Virus record (IMG/VR): IMGVR_UViG_3300025704_002224
Coordinates: 1 to 52,581 of that record
Direction: 5' to 3' (one strand)
Source of the DNA: a virus
Taxonomy: Duplodnaviria; Caudoviricetes
Length of the DNA stretch: 52,581 bases
Of the stretch, positions 30,570-37,020 are shown in pieces. The notes beneath the pieces are model-generated. The model was not told where the DNA came from. It made no database searches and worked only from the letters and a program-made list of their open reading frames with translations. The position numbers were made by a program, and so were the translations under genes. Numbering within the stretch: position 1 is the first letter of the stretch; each line of letters opens with the position of its first letter.

Positions 30570-30775
30570 TCTTCTATTTCCACACAACCAATCACTATCT
30601 TCTCGTAGGGTTGCTGGTATGTTGCGAACACGTCAGTCATCGCATAGAAACGATATTCCGCCATCTCTTCACACTTGGCCAACTCTTGATAGATCACCTG
30701 ATCGCTGTCATTGTAGTTGGTACACTCAACAGCACCGTTGACTAGGAAACACATGGTTGCAAACAATTTGAACAT
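30566..30775 (-). CDS. Small Cys-containing hypothetical protein
   Basis: 69 aa; TAAATA 5 nt upstream; Cys spacing similar to 31925..32137. Confidence 0.7.
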   Translation of the reverse strand: MFKLFATMCFLVNGAVECTNYNDSDQVIYQELAKCEEMAEYRFYAMTDVFATYQQPYEKIVIGCVEIED

Positions 30776-30788
30776 AGCACTATTTAAG

Positions 30789-31087
30789 TGGCCCGTTCTG
30801 TTGCAAGGTGGGCCATACCCCTGGGATTATTGGTTATTACGCCGCTAATCTCAATTCAGACATACCAACTGTTAAGTCAGCAAATCCTAATGCTTTTTTG
30901 TTTGCATTTAAAAAACAGCCTGATTAGGTCAGTGCCATCACCGTAAACTCCCAAGACCTTTACACACCCGTCGAAGCCAAATACACCCCCGGAAGGGATT
31001 ACATAAGCCACCCGTAATAAATTGGTGGAGGTGGAGGGAGTCGAACCCTCGTCCGAAATGTTTATTTCGTCGTGATCAACATTTACA
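30789..31087 (-). ncRNA. ssrA: Two-piece (circularly permuted) tmRNA
   Basis: Minus strand order: T-arm GAGGG-TTCGACT-CCCTC and acceptor 3' CACCTCC-ACCA (ends 31023), 32-nt intervening segment, then 5' GGGGGTG...TTCGAC (starts 30990), giving G3:U70. Resume context TAAAT-GCA; tag ANKKALGFADLTVGMSELRLAA-stop-stop at 30905-30834; terminal hairpin TGGCCC...GGGCCA. Confidence 0.95.
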
Positions 31088-31093
31088 AATATA

Positions 31094-31136
31094 ATTATAC
31101 CTGAAGGTTGACGTATTGTCAACTTTGTGCTAAATT
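31094..31136. promoter_or_regulatory. Overlapping divergent promoters (tmRNA and ORF 31144)
   Basis: Minus TTGACA-N17-TATAAT; plus TTGACG-N17-TAAATT; the -35 boxes form palindrome GTTGAC-N5-GTCAAC. Confidence 0.75.
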
Positions 31137-32137: not shown

Positions 32138-32165
32138 TTGACAAAAATTTAAAGTCTGTTATAAT
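32138..32165 (+). promoter_or_regulatory. sigma70-type promoter
   Basis: TTGACA-N16-TATAAT. Confidence 0.75.
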
Positions 32166-32239
32166 AAAGAGGTAATTTAGGGTTTATCCTATTGTAGGAA
32201 TTATGCCCTCGGTTGCACTCATTAACTATAGGAGATAAT

Positions 32240-33319
32240 ATGAGCAAAGTAAAAATGCTTCTTGACGTTGTAAACGAAGTCAAGAAAGAAGCACCAGATG
32301 ATGTTCCAAATTGGAACAGTAAATTAGCAGAAGCAAAAGTAAATCTACAGAATCAAATAGCAAAAGGCAGATTATTGCCGAGAGGTGTTGAAGACCATCC
32401 ATTAGAACACTTCGCATTCAACTATTCCGTACAGAGAGACGTGAGAGCAGGACATGTCATGAACATCATGAAGAAGTTTGATCCAAGGGTTTGTTGTCCT
32501 GTGTCGGCGGTCAAACGTTCAGACGGAGAGACACTGTACATATTCGATGGGCAACACAGGGCGGTCGCCCTGGCATTACTGGGTTGGACCAAGATACCAG
32601 TGACCATAGTGGAGACAGATGAACCGGCCTTTGACGCAGAGGCGTTCGAGATAGTGAACGACTCAGGTATATTGAGGGCAGGCACGGAAGAGATACACAG
32701 ATGTCTACTGCACAGATACAAGATGGGAGAAACTGAAACAGAACGGGTAGCAACAGCACACGCAGTACAGAAAGTGTTCGACGAGTGTGAGATAGACCTA
32801 GAACCAAAACGTGTCAGGAAGAGTCCAGGCAAGTGTGGACCGAACAAGCACTACTTCTCACATTTTGATTACGCATACAAAGGCATCAAGATGTCAGGCG
32901 AGGAAGGATTGCGTAACGCACTCATGGCCATCAAAGAAGTCTATGGTGACGAAGAAGGCGGAGAGATCAACCAGGGACTGTTCATTGGTCTGATGAAGCA
33001 GTACCAAATGGGTGCAGAGGCCAAGAGGTTAAGCAGACTGCCTGAGGATTGGATGTTGAAGATACTGGCCACAACTAAAAAGGTTTGTCCGAGTGCCACA
33101 CTGATACACACAGCCACGAAGAAACAATGGCAACACGCGAACGGTGTTGGGTGGGACGCACCGGTGGCAATGGGCCATATGCTTAAAGAAGTGTATCAGA
33201 TAGAACAACCAGAAGGCTTCGAACCAAGTTATATGCCCAACGTGACACTGAAATTGGACGAGAGTGACATAGCACCAGATTCAGAGGCACAGACGGCGTT
33301 CAACAAGTATGTCAAATAA
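32240..33319 (+). CDS. ParB/Srx-fold DGQHR-motif protein
   Basis: VQR.V...HV..I..KFD, YIFDGQHR..AL...G...IPV; AGGAG SD before ATG 32240. Confidence 0.75.
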   Translation: MSKVKMLLDVVNEVKKEAPDDVPNWNSKLAEAKVNLQNQIAKGRLLPRGVEDHPLEHFAFNYSVQRDVRAGHVMNIMKKFDPRVCCPVSAVKRSDGETLYIFDGQHRAVALALLGWTKIPVTIVETDEPAFDAEAFEIVNDSGILRAGTEEIHRCLLHRYKMGETETERVATAHAVQKVFDECEIDLEPKRVRKSPGKCGPNKHYFSHFDYAYKGIKMSGEEGLRNALMAIKEVYGDEEGGEINQGLFIGLMKQYQMGAEAKRLSRLPEDWMLKILATTKKVCPSATLIHTATKKQWQHANGVGWDAPVAMGHMLKEVYQIEQPEGFEPSYMPNVTLKLDESDIAPDSEAQTAFNKYVK

Positions 33320-33524
33320 ATTTTGCTATTACATATGCACAGTGACCAAGTCAGTCCCAGACTCCATAAACTTCTTCGAGGAAGAGGAGGAGTACGGTTA
33401 CGGACTGCCATGGAAGGATGTACTTGCAGAAGTGGAGCAACACTACAAGGACGGAGCACTTGCAGTGGAACTAGAGATGATAACAGAGGAGCAGTTCAAT
33501 GATAGACTTCCAAAGCCTTATTAA
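33309..33524 (+). CDS. Small acidic protein
   Basis: 71 aa, EEEEE run, overlaps both neighbours. Confidence 0.65.
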   Translation: MSNKFCYYICTVTKSVPDSINFFEEEEEYGYGLPWKDVLAEVEQHYKDGALAVELEMITEEQFNDRLPKPY

Positions 33525-34029
33525 TTTACCCGAGATAAACTTTAAGAGCAAGGGAAGACCAGAACTTAAGGAACTTGCGGAATACATTGATCACATGAAA
33601 ACGGATTTGTTCAATGACCGTTGGAGCCAAGTGACCAAAAAACACATAAAAACATCCTTGGTGCTGTACATAAGATCCATGCAGAAGCAGTTGGCACCCA
33701 TGGGATACCATTACAAGGCACAGGACATGGAAGGCAAACAACACCTAGAACATGTGATACCACAGAACAAGATCATAACAGCATACCTACATGACAAGAT
33801 ATCATCAGAAGTTGTACTGCAGATGCCGTTGTGTCTGATTGACGATGCAGACAAGCATATATTAGAAGGCGACTGGCAACAGGCCGGCAACTGGGAGTAT
33901 CCATTTCGCAGATACAAGTTGGCAGGTTACACCAAAGTGATCAAAGATGTGCGTGGCAATGCTGTTGATCTAGACACATACACCATACAAGATCACTTCC
34001 GGATGTTGGGTGTGGTTGACTTATCCTAG
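33499..34029 (+). CDS. HNH-like (EHxxP) putative nuclease
   Basis: HLEHVIP ... LCLI; PF.RY. Confidence 0.5.
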   Translation: MIDFQSLINLPEINFKSKGRPELKELAEYIDHMKTDLFNDRWSQVTKKHIKTSLVLYIRSMQKQLAPMGYHYKAQDMEGKQHLEHVIPQNKIITAYLHDKISSEVVLQMPLCLIDDADKHILEGDWQQAGNWEYPFRRYKLAGYTKVIKDVRGNAVDLDTYTIQDHFRMLGVVDLS

Positions 34030-34043
34030 TATTTGTGTATAAT
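34016..34043 (+). promoter_or_regulatory. sigma70-type promoter
   Basis: TTGACT-N16-TATAAT directly before the structured element. Confidence 0.7.
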
Positions 34044-34050
34044 TAAAAAC

Positions 34051-34206
34051 AGCAAATCCACCAGAGCTGGTACGATACCAATTCTCATTTGCAATCTAAA
34101 AATTAGAGACACTTTATGTCGATGATGGATAGAATAGCCGGAGGCGGAGCAAAACAATCCTACGCCAAAGGCGAGGTTGGAGTCAATAACGGACTGGTGG
34201 AGAGCT
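34051..34206 (+). ncRNA. Candidate structured non-coding RNA or 5' leader, family unknown
   Basis: Closing stem TCCACCAG (34057-64)/CTGGTGGA (34194-201) encloses several hairpins; begins at the predicted TSS. Confidence 0.6.
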
Positions 34207-34213
34207 AAACATT

Positions 34214-34723
34214 ATGCCAAGCGAGAAAACAAAAAAATTACTGGAAGGACTGGGCAAGATCACAGACTCTGCACCCAGCAGGTTCGAACAACAGAAGTTC
34301 CATTCCTACACCAACAGATACTATCCCAACCTGTTAAACAAACTGCCGGCATCCTACGACAAAGCCAAGAGAAAGAAGGACGAAGACGGAGACGAGTACA
34401 TCATGATAGACAGGGTGTATGGATCACTGTATGAGAATGCACTGCACCAAAAAGACGGCACAATCTACACAGGCAAGCTCTACAGCAAACGTAGACTGGT
34501 TACCCAAAAGGATGCAATGACCAATGAGAAGAACAACTTCTACAGTGCCTGCGTGAGCACAGCGGATGGTAGATGGTTTGACAACTGTGGATTTCCAATA
34601 GAAGCACCCACCAAACTGGAACCAGAGAAACAGCCAGATCCGGAAGAATTGGAACTGGAGAGACAAAGGAAACTGGAAAACGCAAAGGCCAAAGAGGCAG
34701 AGATACTGGCCAACCTCAAATAA
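34214..34723 (+). CDS. Hypothetical protein
   Basis: 169 aa; no recognised motif; charged helical C-terminus. Confidence 0.75.
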   Translation: MPSEKTKKLLEGLGKITDSAPSRFEQQKFHSYTNRYYPNLLNKLPASYDKAKRKKDEDGDEYIMIDRVYGSLYENALHQKDGTIYTGKLYSKRRLVTQKDAMTNEKNNFYSACVSTADGRWFDNCGFPIEAPTKLEPEKQPDPEELELERQRKLENAKAKEAEILANLK

Positions 34724-34736
34724 CCAACAAAGACTA

Positions 34737-34765
34737 TAGACATTCAATCTCAAATATGATATAAT
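34737..34765 (+). promoter_or_regulatory. sigma70-type promoter
   Basis: TAGACA-N17-TATAAT. Confidence 0.65.
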
Positions 34766-34798: not shown

Positions 34799-35716
34799 AT
34801 GAAAAAGATATTGTCAGTTCTTCTGTCGGCTTTTCTTCTTTTCACGGCAGACGTTCTTGCTGGTGATAAAATAATTGTGTTGAATACAGCCAGTAACAAT
34901 GGAACAATGTTCTCGCAATCAACAGCATATGCAGAAGATTTTAAAAACATGGGATACGATGTTGAATTCGTGTCTCCGGGTAACGCTTGTAAGGCTTGGG
35001 CATACCTACAGAAAGTGCCATCCAACCAACCCGTGTTTATAAACATAGATGCTTACGGACAGGCCAAACCTGCATCTGGACTTTTACAAAACTGTGGTCC
35101 AATATTGGCCAGCAAGAAAGATCTTGTTGCCGCTTACTTAGATCATTTCCATGTGTGTACAATAAATGGATCGGCCGATGAATTATTTTCTAAGGGTGCG
35201 AGCACAAGGATAGGCACTAACAAGCCTGGTGGATTTTGGCAACCGGTGGTTGATAAAATCAATAAAGAAAATAAATCAAGTCATAAGAGGATACAGTACG
35301 GCGGCAGTGGAGACACGAGAAAAGCATTACTTTCAGGCGAAGTGGATTATGTGTTCTTATCAACACGCCACACATACAAACTAGAAAATGCGGGAGCAAC
35401 TTGTTTTGCCGAGTTCACTGATTCTAAAAAACTCAAATACGAACACACTGTTAACGACCTGTCAGCAGGTAAGGATAAATTTGATTCTAGTTTCGCGACT
35501 GGTTGGAGTTTGTTCAATGCTGACAAGAAAATGGTTAAGCAACTGAGAGTGCAGATTAGATCGTTATTTGAAAATGATAGTAACATCATCAAAGCATTAG
35601 GCGGTTCAACACCGATCAACTATTACGGTTGGGACAAATCTATTTCTGCTAGGGTGAAATGGGTAAACGGCTCTATAGATAGATGGGCACAGGCTATGAA
35701 GCAGGCCGCTCAATAA
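34799..35716 (+). CDS. tctC: Divergent TctC/Bug-like periplasmic binding protein
   Basis: Signal peptide; IQYGGSGDT..ALLSGEVDYVF matches the Bug/TctC Y.G.G....AL..GE.D motif. Confidence 0.6.
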   Translation: MKKILSVLLSAFLLFTADVLAGDKIIVLNTASNNGTMFSQSTAYAEDFKNMGYDVEFVSPGNACKAWAYLQKVPSNQPVFINIDAYGQAKPASGLLQNCGPILASKKDLVAAYLDHFHVCTINGSADELFSKGASTRIGTNKPGGFWQPVVDKINKENKSSHKRIQYGGSGDTRKALLSGEVDYVFLSTRHTYKLENAGATCFAEFTDSKKLKYEHTVNDLSAGKDKFDSSFATGWSLFNADKKMVKQLRVQIRSLFENDSNIIKALGGSTPINYYGWDKSISARVKWVNGSIDRWAQAMKQAAQ

Positions 35717-35721
35717 GGCCA

Positions 35722-37020
35722 GTGGACTTTCTACTTGCAATCATACTAGGTATATTTGCAGGAACATTTGCAGGTTTACTCCCAGGGGTGGGGGCAACCG
35801 TAAGTGTCTTAATTCTATTCCCAGTACTGCTTACATTTGATCCTATAAACATCATTGTTTGTTTCGTCAGTTTGTATTCCATGACGCAGTATGTTGGAAG
35901 TGTACCCGCATTATTGCTAGGTGTTCCTGGGGAAGCCAGTTCATTACCTGCAGTCATTGAAGGGCAAAAACTAAAACAACAGAACAAGATTAGTGATGCT
36001 ATTGCATACACGGCAATCGGATCCCTCGTGGGATCGGTAATCGTCGTGGCACTTACACTTATCAGCGGACCGCTTATTGAGAACCTTGCTAAAATTTATA
36101 GGACACCTCTTCAGACTGTTTTGATCTTTTTAGTGCTGACGATGATGTTTTTCTACAAGGAAAATAAGAAATTTACTAATCTTGTGTTAATGATCGCTGG
36201 TTACGTACTTGGCATGATAGGCATACACGGAGACCTTAATCGAGAATTTTTAACATTTGGTAACGTTAATCTCTACAGTGGTCTGCCTATGTTTCCAGTG
36301 CTACTTTCATTATTTGTATTTCCATTATTCTTAAAGACTGTAGACACTCCTACTAGAAATATTTCACCTTTCAAAATAAGGCTATCGTACTTTGTGACCT
36401 TTTTCAAACACAGTACAAGTAGCCTACGCGGAACACTACTAGGATTCATAGGAGGCTTTTGTCCTGGGATGACACACGCCTTCAGTAGTCAACTGGCATA
36501 CACAACAGAAAAAGCAATCAGTAAAGACAGTCTAAAAAGTGTTATAAGTTCTGAAACGGCCAACAATGCCGGAGCGTTCAGTGCCGTGTTGCCATTGATA
36601 ATCCTCGGCATTCCTATATCAAGCAGTGAGGCTCTACTGCTGGCTATCCTGGAAACAAAATCTTTTGCATTCAGCCTTAATGAGTTTATTCCTATCTTGC
36701 AGAAATCAGCGGTGGCATTATTAATTGTAAACGTCATAGGGATTATCATTGCATGGCCACTTGCTAAACATGTTTGCAAAATATTTCTTATAAATCAAAA
36801 AAAATTATACACATTTTTGTTTCTATCCTTGGTCATGCTGAATTACTATATTGGTGGCCTTTACTACAGCGAATATTACTACATGATAGTTTTATTATGT
36901 TTTATGCCGGTAGGCTATCTGTTACGCAAAGTAAACACAATGCCGTTGATATTTTGCTTTATAATAGCGAACTACAGTATCGAACTCATGTGGATTTTTT
37001 ACCAACTATACCTAATGTGA
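35722..37020 (+). CDS. tctA: Second TctA-family permease
   Basis: GLLPGVG, YVGSVPALLLGVPGEASSLPAVIEG, SETANNAGAF...LPL..LGIP; start GTG 35722 or 35683. Confidence 0.85.
   Translation: MDFLLAIILGIFAGTFAGLLPGVGATVSVLILFPVLLTFDPINIIVCFVSLYSMTQYVGSVPALLLGVPGEASSLPAVIEGQKLKQQNKISDAIAYTAIGSLVGSVIVVALTLISGPLIENLAKIYRTPLQTVLIFLVLTMMFFYKENKKFTNLVLMIAGYVLGMIGIHGDLNREFLTFGNVNLYSGLPMFPVLLSLFVFPLFLKTVDTPTRNISPFKIRLSYFVTFFKHSTSSLRGTLLGFIGGFCPGMTHAFSSQLAYTTEKAISKDSLKSVISSETANNAGAFSAVLPLIILGIPISSSEALLLAILETKSFAFSLNEFIPILQKSAVALLIVNVIGIIIAWPLAKHVCKIFLINQKKLYTFLFLSLVMLNYYIGGLYYSEYYYMIVLLCFMPVGYLLRKVNTMPLIFCFIIANYSIELMWIFYQLYLM

Follow-up and report, generated by a model that had tools for sequence, protein, structure and literature searches.

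A previously uncatalogued conserved structured RNA in the 5' leader of a phage gene with no assigned function

The viral record IMGVR_UViG_3300025704_002224 of IMG/VR (52,581 bp, analysed over its whole length and termed the window here) contains, directly before the start codon of open reading frame (ORF) 34214, a previously uncatalogued conserved structured RNA, which forms the 5' leader of the messenger RNA (mRNA) of that gene and is 122-164 nt long among its homologues. The element lies in the interval 34016-34213, flanked by ORF 33499-34029 and ORF 34214-34723 (Table 1). A sequence-only reading of this interval had placed a promoter in it with +1 near 34050, which is borne out by a sigma-70-type promoter whose -35 box falls within the 3' end of ORF 33499-34029 and whose -10 box is followed after 7-8 nt by the first helix. 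As RNA, positions 34050-34213 fold at -47.9 kcal/mol versus -32.9 ± 3.6 kcal/mol in 200 dinucleotide shuffles (z = -4.18), none of which folded as well, and the proposed check of better-than-shuffle folding thus came out in favour of the element. The minus strand of the same segment folds with z = -3.17.

A covarying RNA upstream of ORF 34214

Homologues were gathered by several routes. Protein-guided searches with the two flanking ORFs returned 15 and 18 viral loci, and a profile-guided viral scan 56 loci, with protein identity down to about 32%. Of the 15 stretches picked up by a DNA motif scan, 14 are genuine, and the other, L038, matches by chance within GC-rich coding sequence; a scan of metagenome contigs confirmed at least 490 relatives, the best 80 of which were used. 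The covariance model R1, for which 25 pairs were set by hand on 13 sequences, matches the element in 22 of the 24 viral sources—the misses being the chance locus and L032, whose element was recognised by eye and later matched by the broader model R2—and in 73 of the 80 metagenome loci, the seven misses having 0-90 nt upstream of the ORF. With R2, all 91 sources show one match each and no more, always on the + strand. As some of these sources are the same contig present in two collections, the statistics below refer to 80 distinct sequences unless stated otherwise. Five contigs of 59-84 kb each contain a single copy of the RNA.

In alignments that were fitted to the covariance model, and are hence biased in favour of structure, standard pairs occupy 96.9% of the cells as opposed to 76.2% when the 3' partners are shuffled, and compensatory changes on both sides are seen in 21 of the 25 pairs; the check for covariation among homologues thus came out positive. 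Sliding the partners by one to three columns leaves just 29-45% of the cells paired. The covariation score of 0.502 compares with 0.143 for shuffles and was reached by none of 500. Smaller sets agree, with both-side changes in 19 of 25 pairs for 22 sequences and in 20 of 25 for 73 sequences, and RNAalifold's own fold of the same alignment again yields P1, P3, H2 and H3, with 22 pairs, 19 of them compensatory.

The 5' and 3' ends of the RNA are paired in an interrupted rod, consisting of P0, P1, a variable middle part and P3, which closes a junction with the hairpins H2 and H3. The 3' strand of P0 ends 7 nt before the ATG at 34214. Outside class 1, the strands between P1 and P3 pair mutually (GGCAG/CTGTC, GACGG/CTGTC, GGCAA/TTGTC or GCGA/TCGT in different classes) and the rod has about 18-25 pairs, while in class 1, to which the window belongs, two local hairpins are possible between P1 and P3. 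P1 reads CCACCAG in class 1, AAACATCGG in the class of L016, CAATCCAG in L021 and GCACCAGG in L028; the rod sequences are wholly different between classes and the junction is nearly invariant. The innermost pairs of P3, U-A and C-G, are identical in all 80 sequences, and the first junction strand, taken with the last two P3 bases, has the family consensus TCAYTTGYAA. This strand and GATGATG/TATGCAT, the ATG-containing strand after H2, line the junction unpaired and are strongly conserved. The H2 loop is conserved as CUYUA, and the pair that closes it is A-U in 33, C-G in 31 and G-C in 16 sequences. H3 abuts the 3' strand of P3 without a linker; its first pair is identical in 80 of 80 sequences and its loop ranges among homologues from a 4-nt GNRA type (GTAA, GAAA, GTGA), present in many of them, to 34 nt. 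Long H3 forms in several divergent classes (L008, L015, L087, L103, L118, L012, L033, L026, L138, L011, L034 and L032) have a common loop motif, GGTGACAG, with the variants GTGACAA and TTGTGACAG; the long H3 of the window is without it. For the lower part of the H2 stem (AUUA/UGAU, flanking a GA/GA loop), covariation is absent, with 81.0% of cells paired versus 78.5% in shuffles. Pairing of the H2 loop with the UAGG/UAGA motif of the junction into a pseudoknot, drawn by eye, is compatible with class 1 only and was rejected.

This consensus keeps part of the fold that had been drawn from the window alone. The closing stem CCACCAG/CTGGTGG with AGC/GCT reappears as P1 and P0, and the hairpin GACA-cttta-TGTC as H2. 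The remaining arms fared differently: ATTCT/AGAAT is peculiar to the window variant and conflicts with the covarying P3, as does the hairpin CAA.CCT.CGCC/GGCG.AGG.TTG, the 5' half of which lies in an insertion that most homologues are without. TGGTA-cga-TACCA occurs in one sequence class only and overlaps P3, the register of TCTAA-aaa-TTAGA is inconsistent among homologues, and the GCC assigned to GCC-gga-GGC pairs instead with the GGC just before GAG.

The strand on which the fold is selected can be read from its wobble pairs. The alignment contains 97 G-U cells versus 6 A-C cells (41 versus 6 if one conserved U-G pair is omitted), an excess which shows that selection acts on the fold of the + strand, in the sense orientation of the neighbouring genes. 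A small ORF begins at a conserved ATG, in the window opening with ATGATG and closing with a TAA 5 nt short of the ATG of ORF 34214; it has 28 codons there, 14 in L006, 5 in L002 and L003 and 3 in L028. Its frame changes and no conserved peptide is found among the homologues, and the lengths of the RNA fall in all residue classes modulo 3. Hence an upstream-ORF interpretation was rejected, and by this comparison of homologous sequences the element is not coding.

Table 1. Coordinates of the structured RNA, its parts and associated features (window positions unless a contig is named)
Feature	Position	Strand	Description and evidence
Sigma-70-type promoter	34016-34043	+	-35 TTGACT 34016-34021, 16-nt spacer, -10 TATAAT 34038-34043; 11/12 consensus positions
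Whole structured RNA element	34050-34213	+	covariance models R1 155.8 bits, R2 144.8 bits
P0	5' AGC 34051-34053 / 3' GCT 34204-34206	+	85% of cells paired; 3/3 pairs changed on both sides
P1	5' CCACCAG 34058-34064 / 3' CTGGTGG 34194-34200	+	99% of cells paired; 7/7 pairs compensatory; also in RNAalifold fold
P3	5' CCAA(T)TCTC 34078-34086 (T34082 bulged) / 3' GAGGTTGG 34173-34180	+	97% of cells paired; 5/8 pairs compensatory
Conserved junction strand ATTTGCAA	34087-34094	+	alignments
Hairpin H2	34108-34120: GACA 34108-34111, loop CTTTA, TGTC 34117-34120	+	99% of cells paired
Junction strand GATGATGGATAGAATA	34121-34136	+	GATGATG part nearly invariant in main clade
Hairpin H3	GCC 34137-34139 / GGC 34170-34172, variable insert 34140-34169	+	100% of cells paired
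ORF 34214	34214-34723	+	169 aa, no assigned function; gene linked to RNA
tmRNA gene (permuted, two-piece, alphaproteobacterial-type)	30746-31126; promoter 31122-31094	-	Rfam scan; ARAGORN (30746-31118)
272-aa ORF beginning MPNILVLGDCAS	L081 366-1184

Linkage to ORF 34214 and its product

In 90 of the 91 loci the R2 match reaches up to the start of the ORF 34214 homologue or to within a few nucleotides of it, a position that supports the earlier proposal of an element acting with this ORF. The gap between rod and start codon is A/U-rich and usually 7-10 nt long (range 5-27). Of the 88 loci with at least 50 nt of upstream sequence, 84 have a promoter-like site (TTGNNN, 16-18 nt, TANNNT) immediately before the RNA; the -10 box is TATAAT in 80 of these 84, and the model match most often begins 6-7 nt further on. 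In the four loci without such a site (L013, L146, L147 and L148) the RNA lies between the phage infA gene, encoding IF-1, and ORF 34214, and begins within the last codons of the IF-1 gene, a placement that fits an element serving the downstream gene. The IF-1 gene spans 2151-2369 in L148 (Pfam eIF-1a, E = 7e-23) and 2683-2901 in L013 and is likewise present in L146 and L147; its last codons contribute to the 5' strand of P1, and upstream of it lies a conserved ORF of 77-79 aa (MKKFT..GRFRNVETKIK..), which recurs in L026 and L174.

The same reading had also allowed for a partnership with the upstream DGQHR/HNH-like module, which the homologues do not uphold. Among 18 contigs with a homologue of ORF 33499, 12 have the RNA immediately after it and in 6 there are 0.55-2.1 kb of other genes in between, and in four further loci the upstream neighbour is the IF-1 gene. 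The RNA is tied to ORF 34214 rather than to the DGQHR/HNH-like genes upstream of it. As for these genes themselves, the 'DGQHR' label of ORF 32213-33319 (+, 368 aa) is weak, with 15.8 bits for TIGR03187 versus a cut-off of 58.85 bits, and the same ORF has a ParB-like PHROG match at E = 7e-5; ORF 33499-34029, the 'HNH-like' one, had zero matches in family searches.

The linkage of RNA and ORF 34214 is kept down to about 39-43% protein identity (L181 and L174), and in the contigs searched (five with one copy, five without) the RNA is never found elsewhere than before its gene. The two partners do not vary in step: within class 1 the RNA is 90-98% identical and the adjacent ORF has nucleotide identities down to 70-84%, and over all loci (alignment A6/A7) the RNA classes are shuffled relative to the ORF 34214 alleles. 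Compared with the window, L006 has 96% identity in the RNA and 78% in the ORF, and L082 has 57% and 82%. This shuffling, as far as the alignments go, suggests recombination at the boundary between RNA and ORF.

L081 is the sole exception to the linkage. Here a promoter and an intact RNA (157 bits) precede a 272-aa ORF, and ORF 34214 comes after the latter, with a second promoter, a short leader and no RNA. The 272-aa ORF has no match in Pfam, NCBIfam or PADLOC. It has the same first bases as the start of ORF 34214 (ATTATGCCAA) and a promoter at its own 3' end, and it looks like a cassette that may have been moved by short-homology recombination. In L004, L010 and L032 the corresponding ORF appears to stand upstream of the promoter, and the products of L081 and L032 have an N-terminal GDCAS motif in common.

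The start codon of ORF 34214 in the window lacks a Shine-Dalgarno motif, as had been noted from the sequence; since such a motif, on a loose criterion, occurs in just 20 of the 44 window genes, its absence is unremarkable here. The product has 991 metagenome relatives, all unnamed or 'hypothetical', and no family in Pfam, PHROGs, NCBIfam or PADLOC. Its AlphaFold model, of medium confidence with a predicted local distance difference test (pLDDT) value of 74, has a helix at either terminus, the C-terminal one long, and a beta-rich core between them. Foldseek returned nothing at E <= 0.001 against PDB and BFVD (best E 0.08-0.27), the best VIA-align Z against 48,161 chains was 2.9, and a protein atlas search gave no usable match. 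Profile searches matched 128 proteins at E <= 0.001; the long RTX-repeat proteins among them align over residues ~45-82 only and were set aside as compositional false friends. Basic residues abound in the protein (KAKRKK, KRRL).

Possible modes of action

Covariation, a fold selected on the + strand, the promoter, the lack of an Rfam match (see below) and the linkage to ORF 34214 together support the proposal of a novel non-coding RNA or regulatory leader. At about even confidence, we favour a cis-acting leader that controls ORF 34214 via a bound factor; action in cis is preferred because the RNA keeps its place in front of a single start codon both where it follows a promoter of its own and where it stands between two genes. 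In this scheme, the RNA would be transcribed from its own early sigma-70-type promoter, or co-transcribed behind the IF-1 gene in a few relatives, and would act in cis on ORF 34214, with the conserved junction as the putative binding site of the factor. This factor could be the ORF 34214 protein itself, giving autogenous control, or a small ligand, giving riboswitch-like control. Its occupancy would alter access to the A/U-rich and mostly Shine-Dalgarno-less start region 5-27 nt past the rod. To judge from its conservation, the invariant junction resembles a binding pocket or protein site, for which the rod and H3 appear to behave as replaceable scaffolding.

In the main clade, the AUGAUG(G) of the junction may mask the start codon by pairing with the (U/C)CAUUAU located there. 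In the window, CATTAT at 34210-34215, which includes part of the start codon, has its complement in the GATGATG part of the junction strand at 34121-34136. In classes 1 and 2 the junction and start region offer 6-8 consecutive pairs versus 4.4-5.7 in shuffled start regions, a control that is generous since the sequences are related. The GATGATG strand can alternatively pair internally, extending H2, by a stem without covariation. Since several members do without the start-codon pairing and class-4 starts were mis-assigned, we regard it as a lead only.

Several observations weigh against such a leader. The pairing just described is not kept in L015, L009 and the divergent classes, and over 57 distinct pairs its mean length is 5.86 versus 5.26, a count in which the class-4 start codons are mis-assigned. 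No clear alternative fold was found, and the closing rod of 18-25 pairs is far longer than the closing helices of typical riboswitches, which are short and switchable. The gap of 5-27 nt and the exposed AGGAG between rod and start codon in L181 imply that masking by the rod is not general. Distant relatives of ORF 34214 do without the RNA: there is no significant match in 30 of 44 loci, the six RNA-less loci inspected have coding sequence directly upstream, and the RNA is present in none of five whole contigs of distant relatives, including a complete 328-kb genome. The arrangement in L081 breaks the linkage, the decoupling of RNA class from ORF identity makes co-evolution of RNA and protein not obvious, and searches of Pfam, PHROGs, NCBIfam and PADLOC together with the fold searches found no RNA-binding domain in ORF 34214.

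A more specific proposal, which we advance tentatively and at rather less than even confidence, is that the junction core is a new sensor RNA of one large-ocean-phage clade, either a riboswitch that responds to some unknown signal in the infected cell, or the operator and partner of a new RNA-binding protein family represented by ORF 34214. Were this true, the RNA would time an early phage gene, and its classes would be exchangeable modules of specificity or stability on one invariant core.

As the main alternative, the same structure could belong to a stable non-coding RNA or an RNA-protein partner, processed from the leader (for instance through cutting of the rod by a double-strand-specific RNase) and acting in trans or as a particle, possibly with the ORF 34214 protein, in which case the adjacency of the gene would reflect co-expression. 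We consider this possible but somewhat doubtful. Stable RNAs are typically built with paired 5' and 3' ends, and here the ends are paired in a rod of 18-25 bp that starts a few nucleotides from the predicted +1, behind a near-consensus promoter like that of the nearby transfer-messenger RNA (tmRNA) gene. The identity contrast within class 1 and the shuffling of classes against alleles suggest constraint on the whole RNA as an independent module, the RNA of L081 is intact though uncoupled from ORF 34214, and the GNRA-type tetraloops of short H3 forms and the GGTGACAG motif of long ones are typical of tertiary or protein contacts. Against these points stand the fixed position before the start codon of one gene in all loci but one, the lack of a copy elsewhere in the contigs searched and of an RNA-binding domain recognised in ORF 34214, and the space between RNA and ATG 34214, where no terminator-like or other recognisable 3'-end signal was found. 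A search for trans targets in the 52.6-kb window gave short complementary matches (9-14 nt) that are all at chance level (E >= 1.8). In metatranscriptomes, four runs of one study contain 98-99% of the sampled words, several other runs have about the word share expected from the RNA alone, and in four runs that were inspected, each from a different study, contigs cover the element, with a single contig of the best run (X2) extending from 83 nt upstream of +1 through the RNA into the ORF. These data are contigs without strand, transcript ends or levels, and DNA carry-over is possible; we therefore draw no conclusion on expression from them, and they cannot decide between a leader and a stable RNA.

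A constitutive mRNA module without a sensor—a 5' stabiliser, an RNase III site, or a structure that loads ribosomes or enhances translation at a start codon without a Shine-Dalgarno motif—strikes us as improbable. It would account for a rod at the 5' end of the transcript, for an A/U-rich start region that is Shine-Dalgarno-less in most homologues, and for an RNA before a different ORF in L081; the long irregular duplex in an early leader is also reminiscent of RNase III sites in the early mRNAs of T7 and lambda. However, a stabiliser or cleavage site would have no need of an invariant core (TCAYTTG..., the CUYUA loop, GCGA) across unrelated rods, neighbouring early genes have leaders of just ~27-40 nt, and the infA-linked RNA is internal to its transcript, so that protection of the 5' end is not a general role. 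Folded single-stranded DNA had also been proposed, in the role of an origin or nuclease substrate, to which a packaging signal may be added, and DNA hairpins of the same sequence could indeed form, just as the 28-codon ORF of the window copy might hint at a small peptide; we hold either to be very improbable. The preponderance of G-U over A-C cells, the triloops that are not conserved, the kept promoter or co-transcription context and the cumulative GC skew, which climbs steadily through 34 kb without a turn, speak against a DNA structure, and the shifting frame and length of the small ORF against a peptide.

Genomic setting and comparison with known RNAs

The window, with an estimated completeness of about 21%, has nearly all of its genes on the A-rich + strand and carries genes for a ribonucleotide reductase, a radical-SAM protein, an endolysin and a TctA transporter, besides the permuted tmRNA gene. 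Related contigs of up to 242 and 328 kb point to a clade of large uncultivated marine phages; a collection of cultured phages gave no DNA or protein match to the element region or ORF 34214. The distant ORF 34214 relatives without the RNA include a complete 328-kb genome with direct terminal repeats (G002/L165) and a 242-kb contig (G001/L153), and the records containing L006 and L011 (G006 and G007) are labelled 'provirus' by IMG/VR. The promoter of the tmRNA gene is a perfect sigma-70 one, matching at 12 of 12 positions, and the tag peptide according to ARAGORN is ANKKALGFADLTVGMSELRLAA. A tmRNA gene is also near the structured RNA in L034 and L021, and the marine myophage Melnitz is described as carrying an alphaproteobacterial-type two-piece tmRNA gene (PMC9004378). 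The TctA gene, for the membrane subunit of a tricarboxylate transporter, is full length (35683-37020, +; Pfam E = 4.8e-69), and its start overlaps the end of ORF 34799-35716 (305 aa, function unassigned), which has a promoter at 34737-34765 (11/12). In all, four sigma-70 promoters at 11-12/12 positions (32138-32165, 34016-34043, 34737-34765 and 31122-31094) lie within 3.7 kb, each preceding one single gene or RNA. From its sequence, this stretch resembles an early-gene region that may be transcribed by the host polymerase.

The claim that the element belongs to no known family has held. At the gathering threshold, only tmRNA families of Rfam 15 (4227 models) match in the whole window; at 33900-34350, searched up to E = 10, the best score is 19 bits versus a 41-bit cut-off, and ten divergent homologous loci searched up to E = 1 gave nothing at the element. 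ARAGORN reports no transfer RNA or tmRNA at the element, its sole gene being the tmRNA on the other strand. As in riboswitches, a covarying aptamer-like structure is found in the 5' untranslated region before a start codon. A type III toxin-antitoxin RNA of the ToxI kind was ruled out, there being no tandem repeat in 33900-34400, and so was a retron msr-msd RNA, for the downstream 169-aa ORF has no Pfam domain and is not a reverse transcriptase. Word searches of the literature, which are not sequence-based and are weak evidence for absence in print, returned no description of this RNA.

Structured RNAs that covary to this degree are almost always functional. To our knowledge, few structured RNAs are known from phages, and almost none from large uncultivated marine phages with tmRNA and IF-1 genes. 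The present family is common in ocean data and offers a first approach to ORF 34214, an early phage protein that is widespread but has no known family or fold. As its promoter is a consensus one that should work in Escherichia coli, the RNA should be testable directly without culturing phage or host.

Among known systems, autogenous operators, such as the leaders of ribosomal-protein genes and of phage T4 gene 32, offer one comparison. Like these, the RNA is a structured leader directly before one conserved gene, here in a phage early region and with a basic protein product; unlike them, its classes are shuffled against the protein alleles and distant relatives of the protein gene are without it. 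The phi29-type pRNA is a phage RNA of similar size with a strong early promoter and paired ends that close a three-way junction. It differs from the present element in that the latter has no Rfam match (if the pRNA family is in the library), is an mRNA leader and comes from large marine phages, and in that there is no complementarity between the loop of H2 (CUYUA) and those of H3 (GNRA or GGTGACAG). A closer setting is that of Melnitz, a pelagiphage-like myophage for which a glutamine riboswitch is described upstream of the tmRNA gene (PMC9004378). Both cases combine a structured RNA of a marine phage with a two-piece tmRNA gene behind an early promoter; however, the window contains no glnA-type Rfam match, and its RNA precedes a protein gene 3 kb away from the tmRNA.

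The nearest likeness is to orphan riboswitch candidates and leader motifs of the kind described by Weinberg et al. 2010 (PMC2864571), which likewise have a multi-helix junction with invariant unpaired nucleotides and a variable peripheral hairpin, and lie directly upstream of one gene family with strong covariation. In contrast to those motifs, this is a phage RNA without an Rfam 15 match, so far found only in phage contigs, its rod is much longer than a typical switch helix, and its downstream gene is without known function and hence suggests no ligand. We class the RNA as a new family, corresponding to no catalogued Rfam family, within the known kind of orphan cis-regulatory leader motifs.

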